Shown one piece after another: positions 2,390 to 40,113 of a stretch of DNA of 44,883 nt. The stretch is from Escherichia phage EEc2, in sequence record ON210144.1. The stretch is one strand, 5' to 3'. A program made the translations under genes and the position numbers. How positions within the stretch are numbered: position 1 is the first letter of the stretch; each line of letters starts with the position of its first letter. The notes beneath the pieces were generated by a model. The model had not been told where the DNA came from and did not search any database. It saw only the letters and a list, made by a program, of their open reading frames with translations.

Positions 2390-3274
2390 ATGACTACTGA
2401 AAACATCCTCCTGTCTGTCCGTGAAGCTGCAACTGCTGAGATTAAGCAGCATTTGGATAATATCGGCACTTCTTACATCAAAGTTGGCGCTTGTCTGAAT
2501 GAATTGCGCGGTGATTTCGAAGGCCAAAAAGACTTTTTAGCTTATGTAGAATCAGAGTTCGGCATCAAGAAAGCACAATGCTACAAGCTGATGAGTGTAG
2601 CCCGTGTCTTTGAAGGAGACGAACGCTTTAAAGGTGTGGCTATGCGTGTAATGCTGGCACTCGTTCCTTTCGCTGATGAGAATATAATCATGGAGAAGGC
2701 CGCAGAACTCGCCGCAGATGGCAAGCTGGACACTAATGCCGTAAATGCCCTGATTGATCCTAAGAAAGAGACAAAGGCCGAGACGGTACAATCTAAGGCT
2801 GAGGCGGTAAAACCGCAGGAGAACGCGACTGAGTCCGCAGAATTACAGGAAATGCAAGCGCCGCAGGTAGTGCCACCCGCGAGCGAGCAGGAGGCCGACG
2901 AATCAGCACCTTGGGAAGAGGAAAGCAAGCCGGAAGCGCCTAAGGTCGCGCCACTGGATAACACGGCTAACACCGAGAGTGCCGCTATTGCTGGCCTTCT
3001 GGCACAAATTAAAGCACTGACCGAGCAATTACAGGCAGCTAATGACCGCATTGCCTCCTTAAGCAGCGCACGCGAAAGCAAGAAAGCAGCCGCTCCTATG
3101 CTGCCGCAATTCAAATCTTCCTGCTTCTATGCTCGCTTAGGTTTAAGCGCTGAGGAGGCAACGAAGAAAACAGCAGTTAACAAGGCACGCCGCGAACTGG
3201 TTAAGCTAGGATACGGCGAAGGCCATGAAGCATGGCCCTTAATCTCTGAGGCAGTAGAAGAATTAACTAAGTAA
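2390..3274 (+). CDS. Hypothetical early protein (294 aa), at the position of T7 gene 0.7 but with no kinase motifs
   Basis: ATG 2390 with AAGG 8 nt upstream (track start 2381 is GTG). Central Ala/Glu/Pro-rich low-complexity region and a C-terminal coiled-coil-like segment. Confidence 0.6.
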   Translation: MTTENILLSVREAATAEIKQHLDNIGTSYIKVGACLNELRGDFEGQKDFLAYVESEFGIKKAQCYKLMSVARVFEGDERFKGVAMRVMLALVPFADENIIMEKAAELAADGKLDTNAVNALIDPKKETKAETVQSKAEAVKPQENATESAELQEMQAPQVVPPASEQEADESAPWEEESKPEAPKVAPLDNTANTESAAIAGLLAQIKALTEQLQAANDRIASLSSARESKKAAAPMLPQFKSSCFYARLGLSAEEATKKTAVNKARRELVKLGYGEGHEAWPLISEAVEELTK

Positions 3275-3337: not shown

Positions 3338-5965
3338 ATGCAAGACCTACACGCTATTCAACTTCAACTTGAAGAAGAAATGTTTAACGGCGGTATCCGT
3401 CGCTTTGAAGCGGACCAACAACGCCAGATTGCATCCGGTAATGAATCAGACACGGCATGGAATCGCCGCTTATTGTCCGAGTTAATCGCGCCAATGGCTG
3501 AAGGTATTCAGGCATACAAGGAAGAGTATGAAGGTAAAAGAGGCCGTGCACCGCGTGCATTAGCTTTCATTAACTGCGTAGAAAACGAAGTGGCAGCATA
3601 TATCACGATGAAAATCGTTATGGATATGCTGAACACGGATGTAACCTTGCAGGCTATAGCCATGAATGTAGCTGACCGCATTGAGGACCAAGTACGTTTT
3701 AGCAAGCTGGAAGGTCACGCCGCCAAATACTTTGAGAAAGTTAAGAAGTCACTTAAGGCAAGTAAGACTAAATCATATCGCCATGCGCACAACGTAGCGG
3801 TCGTGGCTGAGAAGTCAGTAGCTGACCGTGACGCTGATTTCTCTCGCTGGGAGGCGTGGCCTAAAGATACCTTGCTACAAATTGGTATGACCTTGCTAGA
3901 AATACTGGAAAATAGTGTATTCTTCAATGGTCAGCCTGTCTTTCTTCGCACCTTGCGCACTAATGGTGGCAAGCATGGCGTTTACTACTTACAGACTAGC
4001 GAACACGTGGGTGAATGGATAACTGCATTTAAAGAGCACGTAGCTCAGCTGAGTCCAGCCTATGCACCTTGCGTTATTCCTCCGCGTCCGTGGGTTTCTC
4101 CGTTTAATGGTGGCTTTCACACCGAGAAGGTGGCAAGTCGCATCCGTCTAGTAAAAGGTAACCGTGAGCACGTCCGTAAGCTGACTAAAAAGCAAATGCC
4201 AGCGGTTTATAAGGCTGTTAATGCATTGCAAGCCACTAAGTGGCAGGTTAACAAGGAAGTATTGCAGGTAGTAGAAGATGTTATTCGTCTAGACCTCGGT
4301 TATGGTGTACCTTCCTTTAAGCCGCTCATTGACCGCGAGAACAAACCAGCTAACCCTGTTCCTCTTGAGTTCCAACACCTGCGAGGCCGTGAACTGAAAG
4401 AGATGCTAACACCGGAGCAATGGCAGGCCTTCATCAACTGGAAGGGTGAATGTACTAAACTGTATACCGCTGAGACTAAGCGCGGCAGCAAGTCGGCGGC
4501 GACCGTCCGCATGGTAGGACAGGCCCGTAAATACAGCCAGTTTGACGCTATTTATTTTGTATATGCACTGGATAGCCGTTCACGCGTTTATGCGCAATCT
4601 AGCACGCTCTCGCCGCAATCAAACGACTTAGGCAAGGCATTGCTCCGTTTTACCGAAGGGCAGCGTCTTGATAGCGCTGAGGCGCTTAAGTGGTTTTTGG
4701 TGAACGGGGCGAATAACTGGGGTTGGGATAAGAAAACTTTTGACGTGCGCACCTCTAACGTGCTGGATGGCGAATTTCAAGACATGTGCCGCGACATTGC
4801 AGCCGATCCGCTGACCTTCACTCAATGGGTAAATGCTGATTCCCCTTACGGCTTCCTTGCATGGTGCTTTGAATATGCGCGTTATCTGGATGCACTGGAT
4901 GAAGGCACGCAAGACCAATTCATGACGCACCTACCCGTCCATCAAGACGGTAGTTGCTCTGGTATCCAGCACTATAGCGCGATGTTACGCGATGAAGTAG
5001 GTGCGAAAGCAGTAAACCTTAAGCCTTCTGACTTCCCTCAAGATATTTATGGCGCGGTTGCGCAGGTTGTTATCCAGAAGAATTACGCCTACATGAATGC
5101 AGACGATGCAGAGACTTTCACATCTGGAAGCGTCACACTTACAGGTGCAGAACTGCGTAGCATGGCTAGTGCGTGGGATATGATAGGAATAACTCGCGGA
5201 TTGACCAAAAAGCCCGTAATGACACTACCTTATGGCAGCACACGTCTAACCTGCCGTGAATCAGTGATTGATTATATCGTTGATTTGGAAGAAAAAGAGG
5301 CCCAACGAGCTATTGCGGAAGGGCGTACCGCCAATCCTGTACACCCTTTTGATAATGACCGTAAGGACAGCCTGACACCTAGCGCAGCTTATAACTATAT
5401 GACAGCTTTAATCTGGCCTTCTATTTCGGAAGTGGTTAAAGCTCCTATAGTGGCAATGAAAATGATTCGTCAGCTTGCCCGTTTCGCAGCTAAAAGGAAT
5501 GAAGGCTTAGAGTATACCTTGCCTACTGGCTTCATCTTGCAACAAAAGATTATGGCTACTGATATGCTCCGCGTATCCACTTGCCTGATGGGAGAAATCA
5601 AGATGAGTCTCCAGATTGAAACGGACGTAGTGGATGAAACGGCTATGATGGGCGCTGCTGCTCCTAACTTTGTGCATGGTCATGATGCCAGTCACCTTAT
5701 CTTAACAGTCTGCGACCTTGTTGATAAAGGGATTACATCTATCGCAGTCATTCATGATTCTTTCGGTACTCACGCAGGCCGTACAGCCGATCTTCGTGAT
5801 AGCTTAAGGGCAGAAATGGTGAAGATGTATCAAGGCCGTAATGCCCTGCAAAGCCTGTTAGATGAGCATGAAGAACGCTGGTTAGTAGACACCGGAATCC
5901 AAGTGCCAGAGCAAGGAGAGTTTGACCTTAACGAAATCTTAGTATCTGACTATTGCTTCGCATAA
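3338..5965 (+). CDS. Single-subunit DNA-directed RNA polymerase (T7 gene 1 type), 875 aa
   Basis: Motifs [13 protein letters not shown] and HDSFGT and a C-terminal ...CFA match the T7/SP6 RNAP family. TAGGAG SD upstream. Confidence 0.97.
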
Positions 5966-5973
5966 TATTAATA

Positions 5974-6004
5974 GGCCATTCCTTCGGGAGTGGCCTTTTC
6001 TTTT
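5974..6004 (+). terminator. Rho-independent terminator after the RNAP gene (9-bp stem, UUCG tetraloop, U-run)
   Basis: GGCCATTCC-TTCG-GGAGTGGCC followed by TTTTCTTTT, 9 nt after the RNAP stop. Plausible early terminator for host RNAP. Confidence 0.7.
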
Positions 6005-6038
6005 ACCTACTACCGGTAACATTTCATTAACATAAAGT

Positions 6039-6054
6039 GTCTCACATGTGAGAC
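6039..6054 (+). repeat. Conserved palindrome GTCTCACATGTGAGAC, copy a
   Basis: Perfect 16-bp inverted repeat ending 2 nt upstream of promoter P1. Confidence 0.85.
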
Positions 6055-6056
6055 TT

Positions 6057-6077
6057 ATTTACCGGACACTATAGGAT
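6057..6077 (+). promoter_or_regulatory. Phage promoter P1 (ATTTACCGGACACTATAGGAT)
   Basis: SP6-like core GACACTATAG; predicted +1 G at 6074. First phage promoter after the RNAP gene. Confidence 0.75.
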
Positions 6078-6219
6078 AGCCGTCGGAGACGGGAAAGAAA
6101 GGGAAGATAAAGGATATAAAGGAAGTAATAGGTATTAAAGGTTATATAGGTTATCTAGGAATACCTATTACCTTCTTCCTTCCTCTTATTACCACTTAGA
6201 GGAAGGGCAGATCTAGGTT
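6078..6219 (+). other. Structured purine-rich/AT-rich tract between tandem promoters P1 and P2 (candidate primary replication origin)
   Basis: Purine run GGGAAAGAAAGGGAAGATAAAGGATATAAAGGAAG, imperfect inverted repeat GGAAGTAATAGGTATT / AATACCTATTACCTTCTTCC and small palindrome CCGTCGGAGACGG. Position parallels the T7 origin at phi1.1A/phi1.1B. Confidence 0.45.
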
Positions 6220-6235
6220 GTCTCACATGTGAGAC
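6220..6235 (+). repeat. Conserved palindrome GTCTCACATGTGAGAC, copy b
   Basis: Perfect 16-bp inverted repeat ending 5 nt upstream of promoter P2. Confidence 0.85.
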
Positions 6236-6240
6236 TTCGT

Positions 6241-6261
6241 ATTTACCGGACAGTATAGATA
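6241..6261 (+). promoter_or_regulatory. Phage promoter P2 (ATTTACCGGACAGTATAGATA)
   Basis: Variant core with GTATAG; predicted +1 G at 6258; 31 nt upstream of the gene 1.1-like ORF. Confidence 0.65.
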
Positions 6262-6288
6262 AGACTAACTTACTTTGGAGATTTAACC

Positions 6289-6417
6289 ATGCGTAACTTT
6301 GAGAAGATGACCCGTAAAGCTAACCGTTTTGACATGGAAGAAGGGCAGACGAAAGGCAAGAAGCTGAATAAACCTGTCCGTGACCGTGCATCTAAACGCG
6401 CAGCATGGGAGTTCTGA
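6289..6417 (+). CDS. Small basic protein resembling T7 gene 1.1 product (42 aa)
   Basis: Translates MRNFEKMTRKANRFDMEEGQTKGKKLNKPVRDRASKRAAWEF, matching my recollection of T7 gp1.1, and sits directly after the tandem promoters as in T7. GGAG 8 nt upstream. Confidence 0.55.
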   Translation: MRNFEKMTRKANRFDMEEGQTKGKKLNKPVRDRASKRAAWEF

Positions 6418-6420
6418 GTT

Positions 6421-6639
6421 ATGGCTAAATACAGAATCAAGACCTGTTTAAATAGTCACGGGCAAGAGTTCTACGTAGTGCAACGTAAAGTATTAGGCTT
6501 AATATGGGTCACTTGTATGATGCCTATTGGCTATACTGATACAGAGGCTATCTTCTGCACCGAAAGGGATGCAAAGAAGTTTATCTCTAAGCGTAGAAAA
6601 GCTGACTCTTACCAACCTAGAATTATTAAGGTGAACTAA
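6421..6639 (+). CDS. Hypothetical protein (72 aa)
   Basis: ATG with GGAG upstream; stop overlaps the primase-helicase start by 1 nt. Confidence 0.55.
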   Translation: MAKYRIKTCLNSHGQEFYVVQRKVLGLIWVTCMMPIGYTDTEAIFCTERDAKKFISKRRKADSYQPRIIKVN

Positions 6640-8627
6640 TGGCTATTATTAATAACATCCCGTGCCCTGCCTGCCAGAAGAATGGGCACGATAAATCAGG
6701 CAATCATCTCATGATATTTGATGATGGTGCTGGCTATTGTAACCGTGGTCACTTTCATGATAATGGTAGACCCTACTATCATAAGCCAGAGGGAGGCATC
6801 GAGATAACCGAGTTGCCTATTACTGGCAATATCAAATATACACCTTCTCAATTCAAAGAAATGGAGAAGGAAGGGAAGATAAGCGACCCTAAATTACGTG
6901 CCATCGCACTAGGTGGTATGCGTATGAAAGACCGTTGGGAGGTCATGAATGAGCAAGAAAGGGCAGACCAAGGAGCAGAGTGGAAACTTGATGTTGAATG
7001 GTTCCTCACGCTTAAGCGTAAGAACCTTGTTTCCCGACACATTCGCGGCGACATTTGCGCATTGTATGATGTACGTGTCGGACACGATGAAGAGGGTAGA
7101 GTCTCGCGGCATTACTATCCACGCTTCGAGAAAGGTGAGCTAGTAGGAGCTAAGTGTCGTACCTTACCTAAAGATTTCAAGTTTGGACACTTAGGTAAAC
7201 TCTTTGGTATGCAAGATCTTTTCGGTATGAATACTTTGTCTCACGTGTTAGACAAGGGGAGACGAAAGGATTGCTTGCTTATTGTAGGCGGTGAACTTGA
7301 TGCACTAGCAGCGCAGCAGATGCTCCTTGATTCTGCCAAAGGTACTAAGTGGGAAGGTCAGCCATACCATGTATGGTCTGTCAATAAAGGTGAGTCTTGC
7401 CTTGAAGAGATAGTGCAAAACCGTGAGCACATAGCCCAATTCAAGAAGATTATATGGGGCTTTGATGGCGACGAGGTGGGGCAGAAGCAGAACCAACAAG
7501 CTGCTCGCCTGTTTCCTGGCAAATCCTACATCCTCGAATATCCATCTGGTTGCAAAGATGCTAACAAGGCATTGATGGCTGGCAAGGCTAAAGAGTTTGT
7601 AGATGCATGGTTTAATGCCAAGTCATCTGATGAAGTCTTTGGTAGCCAGATTAAATCTATCGCATCTCAAAGGGATAAGCTCAAGGCTGCACGTCCAGAG
7701 CAAGGACTATCATGGCCTTGGCCTAAGCTGAACAAGGTAACGCTAGGTATTCGTAAGAACCAACTTATCATTGTAGGCGCAGGCTCTGGTGTAGGTAAGA
7801 CTGAGTTCCTTCGTGAAGTAGTTAAGCACCTCATTGAAGAACACGGTGAATCTGTAGGCATCATTTCTACAGAAGACCCGATGGTCAAGGTGTCCCGTGC
7901 TTTTATCGGCAAGTGGATTGATAAGCGTATTGAGTTACCGCCAACCAACGACCCGAAAGAAGATGGATACCGTGAGGTGTTCGACTACACCGAGGAAGAG
8001 GCTAACGCCGCCATTGATTATGTAGCTGATACAGGTAAGCTGTTTGTAGCTGACCTAGAGGGTGACTATTCGATGGAAAAGGTAGAGCAAACTTGCCTAG
8101 AGTTTGAGGCTATGGGCATTTCTAATATCATCATTGATAACTTAACGGGGATTAAATTAGATGAGCGTGCTTTTGGTGGGAAGGTTGGTGCACTTGATGA
8201 ATGCGTCAAGCGGATTGGTACTATCAAAGACCGACACCCGGTTACTATATTCCTTGTATCACACCTTACACGTCCTCCGGCAAACCGTACCCAACACGAA
8301 GAAGGTGGCGAGGTTATCCTTTCTGACTTCCGAGGTTCAGGCGCTATCGGATTCTGGGCATCTTACGCCTTGGGGATTGAGCGTAATACAAGAGCTGAAA
8401 CGCTTGATGAACGGACTACCACGTACATCTCATGTGTCAAAGACCGCGACCAAGGTATCTACACTGGAACCAAGGTCATGCTTAAGGGTGACATTCAAAC
8501 CGGACGTTTAATGGAACCACAAGCCCGTACTAAGTCATTTGATACAGGTGAAGCAAGGCAACAAGAAGTGCCGGATTTACCGGACACTATAGAAGAGACA
8601 ACTTTTGACGATGAACAGGAGTTTTAA
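6639..8627 (+). CDS. DNA primase/helicase (T7 gp4-like), 662 aa
   Basis: N-terminal Cys4 zinc ribbon CPACQ...CNRGH, Walker A GAGSGVGKTEF, acidic C-terminus ending DDEQEF. Confidence 0.95.
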   Translation: MAIINNIPCPACQKNGHDKSGNHLMIFDDGAGYCNRGHFHDNGRPYYHKPEGGIEITELPITGNIKYTPSQFKEMEKEGKISDPKLRAIALGGMRMKDRWEVMNEQERADQGAEWKLDVEWFLTLKRKNLVSRHIRGDICALYDVRVGHDEEGRVSRHYYPRFEKGELVGAKCRTLPKDFKFGHLGKLFGMQDLFGMNTLSHVLDKGRRKDCLLIVGGELDALAAQQMLLDSAKGTKWEGQPYHVWSVNKGESCLEEIVQNREHIAQFKKIIWGFDGDEVGQKQNQQAARLFPGKSYILEYPSGCKDANKALMAGKAKEFVDAWFNAKSSDEVFGSQIKSIASQRDKLKAARPEQGLSWPWPKLNKVTLGIRKNQLIIVGAGSGVGKTEFLREVVKHLIEEHGESVGIISTEDPMVKVSRAFIGKWIDKRIELPPTNDPKEDGYREVFDYTEEEANAAIDYVADTGKLFVADLEGDYSMEKVEQTCLEFEAMGISNIIIDNLTGIKLDERAFGGKVGALDECVKRIGTIKDRHPVTIFLVSHLTRPPANRTQHEEGGEVILSDFRGSGAIGFWASYALGIERNTRAETLDERTTTYISCVKDRDQGIYTGTKVMLKGDIQTGRLMEPQARTKSFDTGEARQQEVPDLPDTIEETTFDDEQEF

Positions 8628-8805: not shown

Positions 8806-8821
8806 GTCTTACATGTGAGAC
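8806..8821 (+). repeat. Conserved palindrome variant GTCTTACATGTGAGAC, copy c
   Basis: 15/16 match to the perfect palindrome, 18 nt after a stop codon, followed by T-rich sequence; no promoter downstream. Confidence 0.75.
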
Positions 8822-12958: not shown

Positions 12959-13056
12959 TGCAAACTGCTTTTATTATTCTTGGCATCATATTATTTATGG
13001 TAGTACTCTGGGCCTTCTCTGGCATTGACCCGGATTGTGATGGTAACTACGACTGA
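12958..13056 (+). CDS. Small single-pass membrane protein (32 aa), paralog 2
   Basis: ATG overlaps the previous stop; translates MQTAFIILGIILFMVVLWAFSGIDPDCDGNYD, sharing the hydrophobic core and (D)xPDxxxGxYD tail with paralog 1. Confidence 0.4.
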   Translation: MQTAFIILGIILFMVVLWAFSGIDPDCDGNYD

Positions 13057-13124
13057 GTTATACTCAAGGTCACTTACGAGTGGCCTTTATGGATAACTTA
13101 TCCCTACTTATTTTGTCTAACATG

Positions 13125-13145
13125 ATTTACTGGACACTATAGAAG
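13125..13145 (+). promoter_or_regulatory. Phage promoter P4 (ATTTACTGGACACTATAGAAG)
   Basis: Exact consensus; predicted +1 G at 13142. Confidence 0.85.
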
Positions 13146-13211
13146 GAAAGCCTAGACAATCTAGGTTTATAAGGTAGTATAGGTAATTAAGTAAATATAG
13201 GAGATATAAAC

Positions 13212-13589
13212 ATGTCTATGGTAACTACTCTGGTATTTGTAGCTCAATACTTTCGTGGTCTGGCTAATAAGTTCAAGTCCAAGGCTATCAAAGCTATTGA
13301 GTCTCGCATCGAGGCAGTACAGGCAGAGCAAGTTAAAGTTGAAGAACATCGTAGTTCTCAAATGATTGACTGCCATAACCGCTACTATGCATCTCGTGAT
13401 GACCTTAATGCACGCCAAGTCAAAGAGGTTGAAGAGATGCTGGCACGTCACCAGCAAGAGCGCGACAGTCTGAAAGCTGAATTTGAAGAGAACAAGGCAT
13501 CCATCGCCCTTGTACATCAAGCCGCATCTGACAGCCTGAAGAAAGAGATTGTTATGCTGGAAATTGAGTTAGATAACCTGACCAAATAA
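13212..13589 (+). CDS. Hypothetical membrane-anchored coiled-coil protein (125 aa)
   Basis: TAGGAG SD; N-terminal hydrophobic segment VTTLVFVAQYF, remainder charged and heptad-like. Confidence 0.6.
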   Translation: MSMVTTLVFVAQYFRGLANKFKSKAIKAIESRIEAVQAEQVKVEEHRSSQMIDCHNRYYASRDDLNARQVKEVEEMLARHQQERDSLKAEFEENKASIALVHQAASDSLKKEIVMLEIELDNLTK

Positions 13590-36448: not shown

Positions 36449-38343
36449 TGGCTAAGGCAAGAGAATCACAAGCGGAGGCTCTTGCCAGATGGGAGATGCT
36501 ACAGGAGTTACAGCAGACCTTTCCTTACACAGCGGAAGGTTTGCTTCTCTTTGCAGATACAGTTATTCATAACTTAATTGCAGGCAACCCTCATCTGATT
36601 CGTATGCAGGCTGATATCTTGAAGTTCCTATTTTACGGACACAAGTACCGCCTCATCGAAGCGCCTCGTGGTATCGCTAAGACAACACTATCAGCAATCT
36701 ATACGGTATTCCGTATTATTCATGAACCGCATAAGCGTATCATGGTTGTGTCCCAAAACGCCAAGCGAGCAGAGGAAATCGCAGGTTGGGTAGTTAAAAT
36801 CTTCCGTGGCTTAGACTTTCTTGAGTTTATGCTGCCGGATATCTACGCTGGGGACCGTGCATCCGTTAAGGCGTTTGAGATTCATTACACCCTACGTGGT
36901 AGTGATAAGTCTCCTTCTGTATCCTGTTACTCAATCGAAGCAGGTATGCAGGGTGCTCGTGCTGATATTATTCTAGCGGATGACGTAGAGTCGATGCAGA
37001 ACGCTCGTACGGCAGCGGGCCGTGCCTTGCTTGAGGAACTGACTAAGGAGTTTGAATCTATCAACCAGTTTGGGGATATCATTTACCTTGGTACACCTCA
37101 GAACGTAAACTCTATCTACAACAACCTACCTGCTCGTGGTTACTCTGTTCGTATCTGGACTGCGCGTTACCCTTCAGTAGAGCAAGAGCAATGTTATGGC
37201 GACTTCCTTGCACCTATGATTGTTCAAGATATGAAGGACAACCCAGCACTTCGCTCAGGGTACGGGTTGGATGGTAATAGTGGTGCACCTTGTGCCCCTG
37301 AAATGTATGATGATGAAGTCCTGATTGAGAAGGAAATCTCTCAGGGTGCTGCTAAGTTCCAGCTTCAGTTCATGCTTAACACTCGCATGATGGATGCTGA
37401 CAGATACCCATTACGCCTGAACAATCTAATCTTCACCTCGTTTGGTACAGAGGAAGTCCCTGTGATGCCTACGTGGAGTAATGATTCCATAAACATCATT
37501 GGTGATGCACCTAAGTATGGTAACAAGCCTACGGATTTCATGTACAGACCTGTAGCTCGCCCATACGAATGGGGTGCTGTCTCCCGCAAGATTATGTATA
37601 TTGACCCTGCGGGTGGTGGTAAGAACGGAGATGAGACGGGTGTAGCCATCGTATTCCTGCACGGCACATTCATTTATGTGTATCAGTGCTTTGGTGTACC
37701 TGGCGGATACCGAGAATCGTCCCTGAATCGCATTGTGCAGGCCGCAAAGCAAGCGGGTGTTAAAGAGGTATTCATTGAGAAAAACTTTGGTCATGGCGCG
37801 TTTGAGGCTGTTATAAAGCCATACTTTGAGCGAGAATGGCCTGTGACTATTGAAGAGGATTACGCCACTGGTCAAAAAGAACTCCGTATCATAGAGACAT
37901 TGGAGCCGCTGATGACCGCGCATAGGCTTATCTTCAATGCAGAGATGGTCAAGTCGGATTTCGCTTCAGTACAGAACTACCCGCTTGAACTGCGGATGTC
38001 TTATAGTCTGTTCCATCAAATGTCGAACATCACTATTGAGAAGAACAGCCTCAGGCACGATGACCGCTTAGACGCTCTGTATGGCGCTGTGCGTCAATTA
38101 ACTTCTCAGATAGACTATGACGAGGTTACTCGAATTAATCGCCTCAGAGCGCAGGAGATGCGTGATTATATACAGGCGATGAATACACCTAGGCTTCGTA
38201 GGGCCATGCTGTACGGTGATTATGGTGATGAGCGAAGAACAACTAACACCTCTCTAGCGATGCAGCAGAGGGTTTACGGGCAGAATTGGAGGCACCGCTC
38301 TGGGTCTAGAAATACACTTTCCTCAAGGATTTCAAGGATTTAG
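36448..38343 (+). CDS. Terminase large subunit (T7 gp19-like)
   Basis: ATG 36448 with TAAGGAGG upstream (track start 36445 is TTG); ATPase and nuclease motif regions typical of T7-type large terminase. Confidence 0.9.
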   Translation: MAKARESQAEALARWEMLQELQQTFPYTAEGLLLFADTVIHNLIAGNPHLIRMQADILKFLFYGHKYRLIEAPRGIAKTTLSAIYTVFRIIHEPHKRIMVVSQNAKRAEEIAGWVVKIFRGLDFLEFMLPDIYAGDRASVKAFEIHYTLRGSDKSPSVSCYSIEAGMQGARADIILADDVESMQNARTAAGRALLEELTKEFESINQFGDIIYLGTPQNVNSIYNNLPARGYSVRIWTARYPSVEQEQCYGDFLAPMIVQDMKDNPALRSGYGLDGNSGAPCAPEMYDDEVLIEKEISQGAAKFQLQFMLNTRMMDADRYPLRLNNLIFTSFGTEEVPVMPTWSNDSINIIGDAPKYGNKPTDFMYRPVARPYEWGAVSRKIMYIDPAGGGKNGDETGVAIVFLHGTFIYVYQCFGVPGGYRESSLNRIVQAAKQAGVKEVFIEKNFGHGAFEAVIKPYFEREWPVTIEEDYATGQKELRIIETLEPLMTAHRLIFNAEMVKSDFASVQNYPLELRMSYSLFHQMSNITIEKNSLRHDDRLDALYGAVRQLTSQIDYDEVTRINRLRAQEMRDYIQAMNTPRLRRAMLYGDYGDERRTTNTSLAMQQRVYGQNWRHRSGSRNTLSSRISRI

Positions 38344-38344
38344 T

Positions 38345-38365
38345 ATTTACTGGACACTATAGGAG
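38345..38365 (+). promoter_or_regulatory. Phage promoter P10 (ATTTACTGGACACTATAGGAG)
   Basis: 20/21 consensus; +1 G at 38362; 2 nt after the terminase stop, upstream of the paralog cluster. Confidence 0.8.
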
Positions 38366-38490
38366 GGATACCAAGAGAATAAAAGGATAATATAGGATTA
38401 CCTAGGCTATATAGGTACACCTTATTATGAGGGTACCCCTGTACCCTCTTCTTACCTACTTCATTATTTACTATAAACAAGGAGTATAGA

Positions 38491-38772
38491 ATGGCTAATA
38501 ATTATAGTGATCAACCACTAACAGGACGATATGATCGAAAGCAGGAGACGCCTGTAAGTGAAGCGTTAATGCTCCCTGTTGTTACAGAGGAGTCTATTAC
38601 GAAGAAATCCAATGTTATCAATGATGCAACCAAATCTGGCAAACAGAAAGCAGCAATGGTGTGTCGCCCTGTAGGTGGCACTCTTGAGATTGCCATTGCT
38701 ACTGGCAGCAAAGAGGATGCAGATTGGTTGTCTGTTAAAATGGATGGCGTTGGTCTTATTACACCGGCTTAA
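38491..38772 (+). CDS. Small protein, paralog A of a tandem family (93 aa)
   Basis: AAGGAG SD; shares ...INxxxxSGKQKxAMVxxxxxGxxxxIAIAxGSxxxDxW... with paralogs B and C. Confidence 0.6.
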   Translation: MANNYSDQPLTGRYDRKQETPVSEALMLPVVTEESITKKSNVINDATKSGKQKAAMVCRPVGGTLEIAIATGSKEDADWLSVKMDGVGLITPA

Positions 38773-39769: not shown

Positions 39770-40113
39770 TGCTAAATCAATACTTCAAGCGTAAAGAATT
39801 TGCTTGCCGTTGTGGGTGCGGTACATCCACTGTTGATGCTGAGTTACTACAGGCAGTAACAGATGTGCGTGAGCACTTTGGTGCTCCTGTGGTTATTACT
39901 TCTGGTCATCGTTGCCCCAAGCACAACGCTGATGTAGGTGGAGCTAAGAACTCCATGCATCTTACTGGTAAGGCTGCTGACATTAAGGTACGAGGCATCT
40001 TACCTTCTGATGTACATAAGTATCTTACTGATAAGTACCAAGGCAAGTATGGTATTGGTAAGTATACCTCCTTTACTCATATTGATGTACGTAACGGGTG
40101 TGCACGATGGTAG
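39769..40113 (+). CDS. Endolysin, peptidase M15-type (114 aa)
   Basis: HRCPKHN and NSMHLTGKAADI (SxHxxGxAxD) and THIDVR match the zinc peptidase M15 endolysin pattern; ATG 39769 (track start 39742 lacks RBS). Confidence 0.75.
   Translation: MLNQYFKRKEFACRCGCGTSTVDAELLQAVTDVREHFGAPVVITSGHRCPKHNADVGGAKNSMHLTGKAADIKVRGILPSDVHKYLTDKYQGKYGIGKYTSFTHIDVRNGCARW

Follow-up and report, generated by a model that had tools for sequence, protein, structure and literature searches.

In bacteriophage T7, replication begins at the tandem promoters phi1.1A and phi1.1B, every origin needs a phage promoter, and upon deletion of the primary origin secondary origins such as phiOR and phi6.5 take over (PMC8373140). 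Here, we analysed the corresponding locus of Escherichia phage EEc2 (ON210144.1), whose complete genome of 44,883 bp is called the window in what follows. The phage is a K1E/K1-5-like Vectrevirus of the SP6 supergroup (Molineuxvirinae), and the element in question is a non-coding cassette in the 323-bp gap that separates the RNA polymerase gene (3338-5965) from an open reading frame (ORF) of 42 codons (6289-6417). From left to right, the cassette consists of a terminator, a palindrome, the phage promoter P1, a 5' stem-loop, an array of AGG units, a G-free tract, a hairpin, a second palindrome and the promoter P2, followed by the gene 1.1 homologue (Table 1). At this locus, the early genes of an SP6-type phage give way to the middle genes: early transcription by the host RNA polymerase stops at the terminator, which begins 8 nt past the polymerase stop codon, and the phage polymerase starts at P1 and P2 to transcribe the gene 1.1 homologue, gp8.5 and the primase-helicase. 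By analogy with T7, the cassette may be the SP6-group counterpart of the primary origin, a tentative assignment that we place somewhat short of an even chance.

The likeness to the T7 primary origin concerns both position and content. The two loci share the genomic slot between homologous RNA polymerase and gene 1.1 genes, a tandem pair of phage promoters, an AT-rich non-coding tract directly after a promoter, and an R1.1-like hairpin that lies past the stop codon of the polymerase gene but ahead of the last promoter. An earlier interpretation made from the letters alone (the sequence-only reading) had proposed a primary origin at this place, exactly as in T7. Its elements were all located where it had put them, far above chance expectation, and the order of polymerase gene, promoters, AT-rich DNA and gene 1.1 homologue does agree with T7; however, the AT-rich tract lies between the promoters here, whereas it follows both in T7. 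Other differences are that the early terminator of T7 comes after gene 1.3, while a host terminator precedes P1 here, that palindromes flank the promoters, and that the tract is a 9-10-nt AGG array, first C-free and then G-free, whereas the T7 origin tract has no significant periodicity (p = 0.26) and T7 contains no AGG chains. Moreover, initiation has been demonstrated in T7, whereas the locus described here is a candidate. In a T7 control, the AT-richest 60-nt stretches sit behind phiOL, phi1.1B, phi6.5 and phiOR, known origins included. For EEc2, the AT-richest 60-nt stretches after a phage promoter (6104, 13167 and 38449) correspond to three array cassettes, and the one at 6104, with a GC content of 0.25, is among the five AT-richest of the genome. 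The analogy with an origin would then be supported by synteny, by the AT-rich rule seen in T7, by a cassette common to the promoter in the phiOR position, and by the adjacency of the primase-helicase gene.

The tract behind P1 is periodic, with AGG units spaced on average about 9.5 nt apart. The chain of seven units is the longest of the genome, shuffled genomes reaching a maximum of three to four in 98 of 100 trials; the self-match of the array at lag 9 is 0.66, a value as high being obtained in none of 300 shuffles, and Tandem Repeats Finder reports a period of 9 in the purine tract. The C-free run that holds the array spans 64 nt (6091-6154), the GC and AT skews are +0.53 and +0.32 over 6050-6149, and the GC content is 0.32 over 6100-6199. 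Indels among relatives have the size of a unit (+11 nt in phage T205P4, +10 nt in ULINTec4). The interval from P1 to the second palindrome is non-coding, there being no ORF of at least 30 aa in the three frames checked. By inspection, the array could not be assigned to a CsrA decoy, an array of Shine-Dalgarno sequences, an Hfq (ARN)n motif or an RNase E motif, its core being AGGUA instead of GGA and no motif fitting every clade. Also rejected was a mimic of a promoter half-site: likeness to TTAGGTGAC is seen in SP6 only and is gone in clades with other promoter specificity.

Cassettes of this type follow two further promoters. AGG chains stand on the + strand right after three phage promoters of the window, whose leaders are mutually similar, the observed scores being attained by 0, 3 and 15 of 500 shuffles. 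The cassette at 13125 lies a few hundred bp past the DNA polymerase gene and is syntenic in SP6 (12542) and in Klebsiella phage VR702 (12789). Its array is shorter, with five units in VR702; in the window and in SP6 it is too short for the 4-unit chain finder and was seen by inspection and alignment. The cassette at 38345 is directly 3' of the terminase large-subunit gene, which is the position of phiOR in T7, and the leader is shared at the post-terminase promoter in three genera, the array counting four units in the window, seven in SP6 (37773, units at 37792) and 10 in VR702 (39781, units at 39800). As in phiOL, phiOR and phi6.5, a promoter is followed by an AT-rich, C-poor tract. However, there is no detectable sequence similarity to these parts of T7, the repeats are periodic here, and an origin role would be assigned by analogy. 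Since the three cassettes precede unrelated genes, a leader function specific to one gene seems to us disfavoured. A further property of the cassettes is that 13022-13306, 38292-38541 and 5960-6207 are the second to fourth longest stretches of the genome free of GCA on either strand, and that in VR702 the stretches holding the array cassettes rank first and second; this may be a mere by-product of the C-free and G-free composition.

The cassette is widely conserved. At least 80% of the intergenic region is present in 98 of 102 matching phage records, and the identity of the gap is 70% among Vectrevirus, Zindervirus (SP6) and Klebsiella SP6-like phages. All 25 relatives from IMG/VR have the cassette, including those with another promoter specificity, and the P1 position holds a promoter in every relative even where that specificity differs. 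Within Vectrevirus, the non-coding region has a pairwise diversity of about 0.05, compared with 0.27-0.32 for third codon positions in the flanking polymerase and primase genes. A more distant set was formed by Vibrio phage BD1, Edwardsiella phage DT115P1, Pseudomonas phage Alpheus and Vibrio phage Vp670, whose RNA polymerase C-terminus is 40-50% identical. In these four phages, a terminator is again followed by the first phage promoter and a purine-rich array, often with the same palindrome between terminator and promoter, and the palindrome or a significant 8-10-nt period is retained in three of them. The units differ among these phages (TAGGTAT, AGTAAGCT, CCAGTAG), and the periodicity is significant at lag 10 in Alpheus and the Edwardsiella phage and at lag 17 (about 8.5 nt) in BD1, not in Vp670.

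If the cassette is an origin, the following sequence of events could be proposed. Transcription from P1 would open the AT-rich, periodically phased tract, and the purine-rich transcript would stay hybridised or pause, allowing the phage DNA polymerase to extend it rightward. The primase-helicase, encoded immediately downstream (6639 onward), would load on the displaced + strand, and leftward synthesis could be primed at the first GCA, the single one beside the tract at 6207. The SP6 primase recognises 5'-GCA-3' (PMC2034472), and there is one such triplet per strand in 300 bp of the region. The cassettes at 13125 and 38345 would act as secondary origins or "replication promoters" like phiOR of T7. 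A comparable arrangement of a promoter followed by a purine- or G-rich non-template strand, which favours a lasting RNA-DNA hybrid, is known from R-loop-primed origins such as ColE1 RNA II and the mitochondrial heavy-strand origin, the latter of which uses a T7-like RNA polymerase. However, the cassette has no blocks of the G-quadruplex type, and a hybrid is predicted here by an energy score. This score, hybrid minus duplex nearest-neighbour energies, places the start of the P1 RNA, which is 73% purine, second genome-wide for hybrid-over-duplex stability.

Several points weigh against an origin at this site. As a start site of DNA synthesis, the cassette is a candidate drawn from analogy. The R-loop score was discarded as evidence, as it fails the T7 control (the primary origin reaches a percentile of 0.67-0.76, and phi6.5 does not score either); it is not a validated predictor, because it misses the T7 primary origin and because the SP6 P1 region is outside the top ten of that genome. 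The GCA at 6207, kept in Vectrevirus and SP6, is absent from most Klebsiella and Zindervirus relatives. GC and purine skew were rejected as well, being positive in every 2-kb bin with a monotonic cumulative curve in both the window and SP6. An origin within the DNA polymerase gene has been suggested on skew grounds (Dobbins et al. 2004, as quoted in PMC4837284), which the present analysis did not reproduce; since skew is uninformative, that location is neither backed nor contradicted here. Moreover, the block of low diversity (about 5900-6410) runs into coding DNA, with a value of 0.076 at the third positions of gene 1.1, and some of the conservation of the cassette may come from hitch-hiking or recombination history and not from selection on each base. 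The 5' stem-loop is a selected RNA-level feature of a kind usual for stable mRNAs, not for primers, and the palindromes, if taken as an origin feature, are a separate genome-wide family that is not specific to origins. Finally, the T7 primary origin is itself dispensable (PMC8373140), so that being an "origin" may be a soft property, open to every promoter that has an AT-rich tract.

The foremost alternative, which we regard as doubtful but worth serious attention, is that the cassette is solely an RNA leader, in which a protective 5' stem-loop, an unstructured A/G/U array of weak Shine-Dalgarno-like units and the hairpins would set middle-mRNA stability, processing by RNase III or RNase E, or ribosome loading. 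DNA replication would then begin at another place or have no fixed start. The 5' stem-loop argues for such a leader, its middle pair covarying among 25 sequences (GC in 16, AU in six and UA in two, with CCCUC/GAGGG in relative L029). Every array is on the transcribed strand right after its promoter, the units ATAGGTA and TAAGGTA resemble the ribosome-binding context ATA(A/T)AGGAGAT, and the 13125 array runs straight into a ribosome-binding site. Inverted repeats are also present, by eye, in 5' regions of other phage transcripts, for example at 13142, 13605 and 23498. However, the 9-10-nt period is held while the unit sequence changes, which has no obvious RNA rationale, P2 yields the same mRNA minus the leader, and the P1 array stands some 130 nt, with two hairpins in between, 5' of the start codon.

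The RNA of 6074-6240 folds at -48 kcal/mol (z = -2.1), and the z value of -5.3 for the DNA comes mostly from the two identical palindromes pairing together. The inverted repeat that the sequence-only reading had seen between the purine and pyrimidine tracts was recovered as two 18-nt arms of 89% complementarity, and hairpins of this long type are predicted in each clade, with mononucleotide-shuffle z values of -1.6 to -6.8. In 12 of 17 relatives, folding is slightly more favourable for the + strand RNA, which has more G.U pairs, than for the - strand, a point in favour of the leader. However, the pairings differ from clade to clade: RNAalifold on the 25 sequences retained the 5' stem-loop alone and gave no covariation for the long hairpin across clades, and within Vectrevirus uncompensated changes on a single side break its pairs (L018, L023). 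In the post-terminase sister leaders the arrays are unpaired and structure is not significant (z = -0.6 to -1.1). A search of Rfam 15 gave no family reaching its gathering score, the best hit, at 22.5 bits versus a cutoff of 73, being among generic hairpin matches to plant microRNA precursors. The periodicity, the terminator, the 5' stem-loop and the third hairpin (6178-6206) had not been mentioned in the sequence-only reading.

T7 reportedly carries an RNase III processing site, R1.1, in the homologous region between genes 1 and 1.1, and the P1 transcript of the window likewise has an irregular long hairpin in this region, whose 17 + 6 bp fit the irregular, about two-helical-turn form of T7-type RNase III sites; its pairing was not kept in the relatives analysed with RNAalifold. 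However, the sequence similarity to R1.1 falls on the terminator hairpin upstream of P1, and the long hairpin was therefore rejected as the positional homologue of R1.1. The 3' half of the terminator and the following ACCT.CT.CCGGT align with the 3' half of R1.1 at 25 of 31 positions, a score matched by none of 300 shuffles. This weakly suggests that P1 corresponds to phi1.1B rather than to phi1.1A, and the array to the AT-rich origin tract of T7; the match is only suggestive because the hairpin core GAGTGGCCTTT recurs at T7 positions 1456 and 6435, which we take to be the RNase III sites R0.5 and R1.3. For the Klebsiella-clade form of this hairpin, the best match in T7 is at 7568-7586, a short way 5' of the annotated TE terminator. 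These similarities hint at a common ancestry of T7 processing sites and SP6-group terminators. Since the T7 origin region also bears an RNA processing site, the origin and RNA-leader readings are not mutually exclusive.

An improbable alternative is that the array acts as double-stranded DNA, either as phased sites for a putative phage or host protein or as curved DNA, regulating P2 or downstream units, polymerase pausing, genome entry or packaging instead of replication. The period is near the helical repeat and is held as the units diverge (TAGGTA, CCAGTAG, AGTAAGCT), indels occur in whole units, and one cassette, situated towards the right of the genome, adjoins the terminase gene. However, the mean period of about 9.5 is below 10.5 bp, no candidate for a binding protein emerged, the arrays all face the same way relative to transcription although neither a double-stranded site nor a bend calls for this, and the strict asymmetry, C-free and then G-free, points to a property of a single strand or hybrid. 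Phased direct repeats adjoining replication genes are also a trait of iteron origins (lambda ori, theta plasmids). In those the units are of about 17-22 bp, whereas the units here are of 9-10 nt, lie 3' of a promoter and are confined to one strand; no initiator (Rep/O) gene is adjacent, the neighbours being the gene 1.1 homologue, gp8.5 and the primase-helicase.

Very improbable is a gene for a small RNA of about 165 nt, from P1 to a hairpin with a U-rich tail at the second palindrome, that would act in trans, for instance by titrating an RNA-binding protein of the host as a decoy. The interval is non-coding and structured, and both palindromes score as weak terminator-like sites on the + strand; but the stem has only 6 bp and the T-tail is interrupted, the hairpin has no trailing Ts in SP6 and the Klebsiella clade, the second palindrome is missing in distant relatives, and the GGA motifs of a CsrA decoy are not conserved, the conserved core being AGGUA. 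As to mobile genes near the cassette, Salmonella phage PST_H2 (L008, 560-1147) carries a frameshifted HNH homing-endonuclease ORF that starts within the AGG array and whose NUMOD4-like N-terminus is encoded by array-like sequence, and an HNH homing-endonuclease gene adjoins the cassette in relative L035 (about 2400-3000). That the array is a functionless, decaying remnant or footprint of such a gene, to which these ORFs would point (NUMOD4 E = 0.007 and HNH_3 E = 3.7e-5 in PST_H2, both below Pfam cutoffs), appears close to refuted by the conservation data, as the array is strongly conserved across genera and recurs behind two further promoters, its 9-10-nt period is not a multiple of 3, and in the window it shows no ORF or Pfam signal.

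The sequence-only reading had also described a perfect 16-bp palindrome before each promoter, and both copies of GTCTCACATGTGAGAC were found. They belong to a family dispersed along the genome: eight matches with at most three mismatches occur in the window versus 0.2 expected, at 561, 6039, 6220, 7238, 8806, 9950, 14788 and 31644, and syntenic copies, one of them within the primase-helicase gene, are present in SP6 (L038, 493-30569) and VR702 (L040, 858-31781). The half-site shifts in concert between genera (GTCTCAC vs GTCCAAC/GTCTAAC). The intercistronic copies at 8806, 9950 and 31644 resemble RNA hairpins, because they have 7-bp stem extensions that covary between the window and SP6, with U.G wobbles in the + sense only; the copies at 6039 and 6220 have no such extension. 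The primase-helicase copy (7238) lies just past an in-frame ATG at 7227 (Met197). An identification of the palindromes with the SP6 terminator t5 was rejected, as they are not among the terminator templates of the SP6 terminator paper. A broader proposal, unlikely in our estimation, is that the approximately 10-nt purine-rich arrays behind three promoters and the palindrome family would form an undescribed cis-acting system, read by a putative phage or host factor and marking "replication promoters" at which transcription would be turned into DNA synthesis, with units that co-evolve, in the SP6 supergroup (Molineuxvirinae) and partly in Colwellvirinae-like phages.

Table 1. Features of the cassette, its neighbours and the sister cassettes in the window (strand given as + or, for palindromes, as a dot).
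Feature	Position	Strand	Remarks
Intrinsic (host RNA polymerase) terminator	5973-6005	+	Terminator scan; 10-bp stem, UUCG loop, T-run
Conserved spacer ACCTACTACCGGTAACATTTCATTAACATAAAGT	6006-6038	+	Near-identical in Vectrevirus, SP6 and Klebsiella clade; pairwise diversity 0.047
Perfect 16-bp palindrome, copy 1, GTCTCACATGTGAGAC	6039-6054	.	Family member with syntenic SP6 and VR702 copies
Phage promoter P1, ATTTACCGGACACTATAG	6057-6074	+	Exact match to promoter at 8575; one of a family of 12
5' stem-loop CCGUC-GGA-GACGG	6080-6092	+	5 bp; P1 transcript positions +7 to +19
Array of seven AGG-centred units, 9-11 nt apart	6093-6159	+	In the longest C-free run of the genome; equivalents in all relatives
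Long imperfect hairpin	6119-6177	+	Arms 6119-6136/6160-6177; upper stem 6139-6145/6150-6156
G-free pyrimidine-rich tract, 39 nt	6160-6198	+	Joint-longest G-free run in the genome; same in SP6 (6214) and VR702 (6390)
Hairpin 3, CCUUCCUCU with AGAGGAAGG	6178-6206	+	9-bp stem; a hairpin in this position is also predicted for the SP6 clade and relatives L035-L037
5'-GCA-3'	6207-6209	+	Only + strand copy within 5963-6300; SP6-type primase triplet
Perfect 16-bp palindrome, copy 2, GTCTCACATGTGAGAC	6220-6235	.	No copy before P2 in distant relatives L031-L037
Phage promoter P2, ATTTACCGGACAGTATAG	6241-6258	+	Variant with G at -5; one of a family of 12
Short leader	6259-6288	+	Shine-Dalgarno GGAG at 6277-6280
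Gene 1.1 homologue (42 aa)	6289-6417	+	Pfam Phage_1_1 PF08200, E = 7e-16, above cutoff
Primase-helicase gene	6639-8627	+	Pfam DnaB_C and Toprim_2; K1E annotation; palindrome copy inside at 7238
Sister cassette: promoter, AGG-unit C-free (49 nt) AT-rich leader	13125-13211	+	3/500 shuffles reach the similarity to the P1 leader
Sister cassette: promoter, four AGG units, GC hairpin, 39-nt G-free tract	38345-38490	+	0/500 shuffles reach the similarity to the P1 leader

The remaining features of the locus agree with its place in the SP6 supergroup. Over 5900-6450, the identity is 100% with Escherichia phage 6948 and 97% with K1E, and the gene order agrees with SP6 and K1E. The terminator is kept in all relatives and is annotated as such in phage R4596. 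The two promoters described in the sequence-only reading were located as listed, 184 bp apart from start to start, and the ORF that it had called gene 1.1-like is confirmed by its Pfam match. Transcripts would start at G6074 for P1 and at G6258 for P2. The promoter family has 12 members in the whole window versus 0.01 expected. No clade has a consensus P2, the sequence being CAGTATAG in the window and CACTATTG in the SP6 and Klebsiella clades. Two promoter subclasses can be told apart: ATTTACCGGACA at 6057, 6241 and 8575, the first three after the polymerase gene, and ATTTACTGGACA at 13125, 14819, 23481, 38345 and 40688. In the record of ULINTec4 (L010, MZ997839), about 230 nt of near-pure poly-T (530-755), partly annotated as protein, stand between the terminator and the spacer; an error of assembly is the likeliest cause. 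Between gene 1.1 and the primase gene lies a small ORF (6421-6639, gp8.5 of K1E) without a Pfam match, at which otherwise near-identical Vectrevirus genomes carry unrelated alleles; pairwise diversity there is about 0.49 at every codon position. About 11 CTTAGT/CTTAGG repeats, 9-13 nt apart (290-420), lie just inside the terminal repeat close to the left end of the genome and recall the short repeat arrays near the T7 ends.

SP6, K1E and K1-5 are workhorse phages, as the source of SP6 polymerase and in capsule-targeting therapy. No paper mapping the replication origin of SP6, K1E or K1-5 was found in the accessible literature, the genome papers (Dobbins 2004, Scholl 2004) being outside that search. 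An origin by T7 analogy is textbook reasoning, which the genome papers on SP6 and K1-5 may already contain. The accessible literature yielded no account of periodic arrays following three promoters, of how deeply these are conserved or of the palindrome family, and the arrays and palindromes are unannotated in the database records inspected. Being conserved well past one genus, the array and the palindrome family offer cheap targets for deletion genetics. Moreover, if the cassette is the origin, it would provide a compact, portable promoter-plus-array module for orthogonal polymerase-driven replicons, for which T7 is a precedent, and a rule for locating origins in the many T7- and SP6-like genomes now entering the databases, namely to look for a periodic, C-free, AT-rich leader behind a phage promoter.

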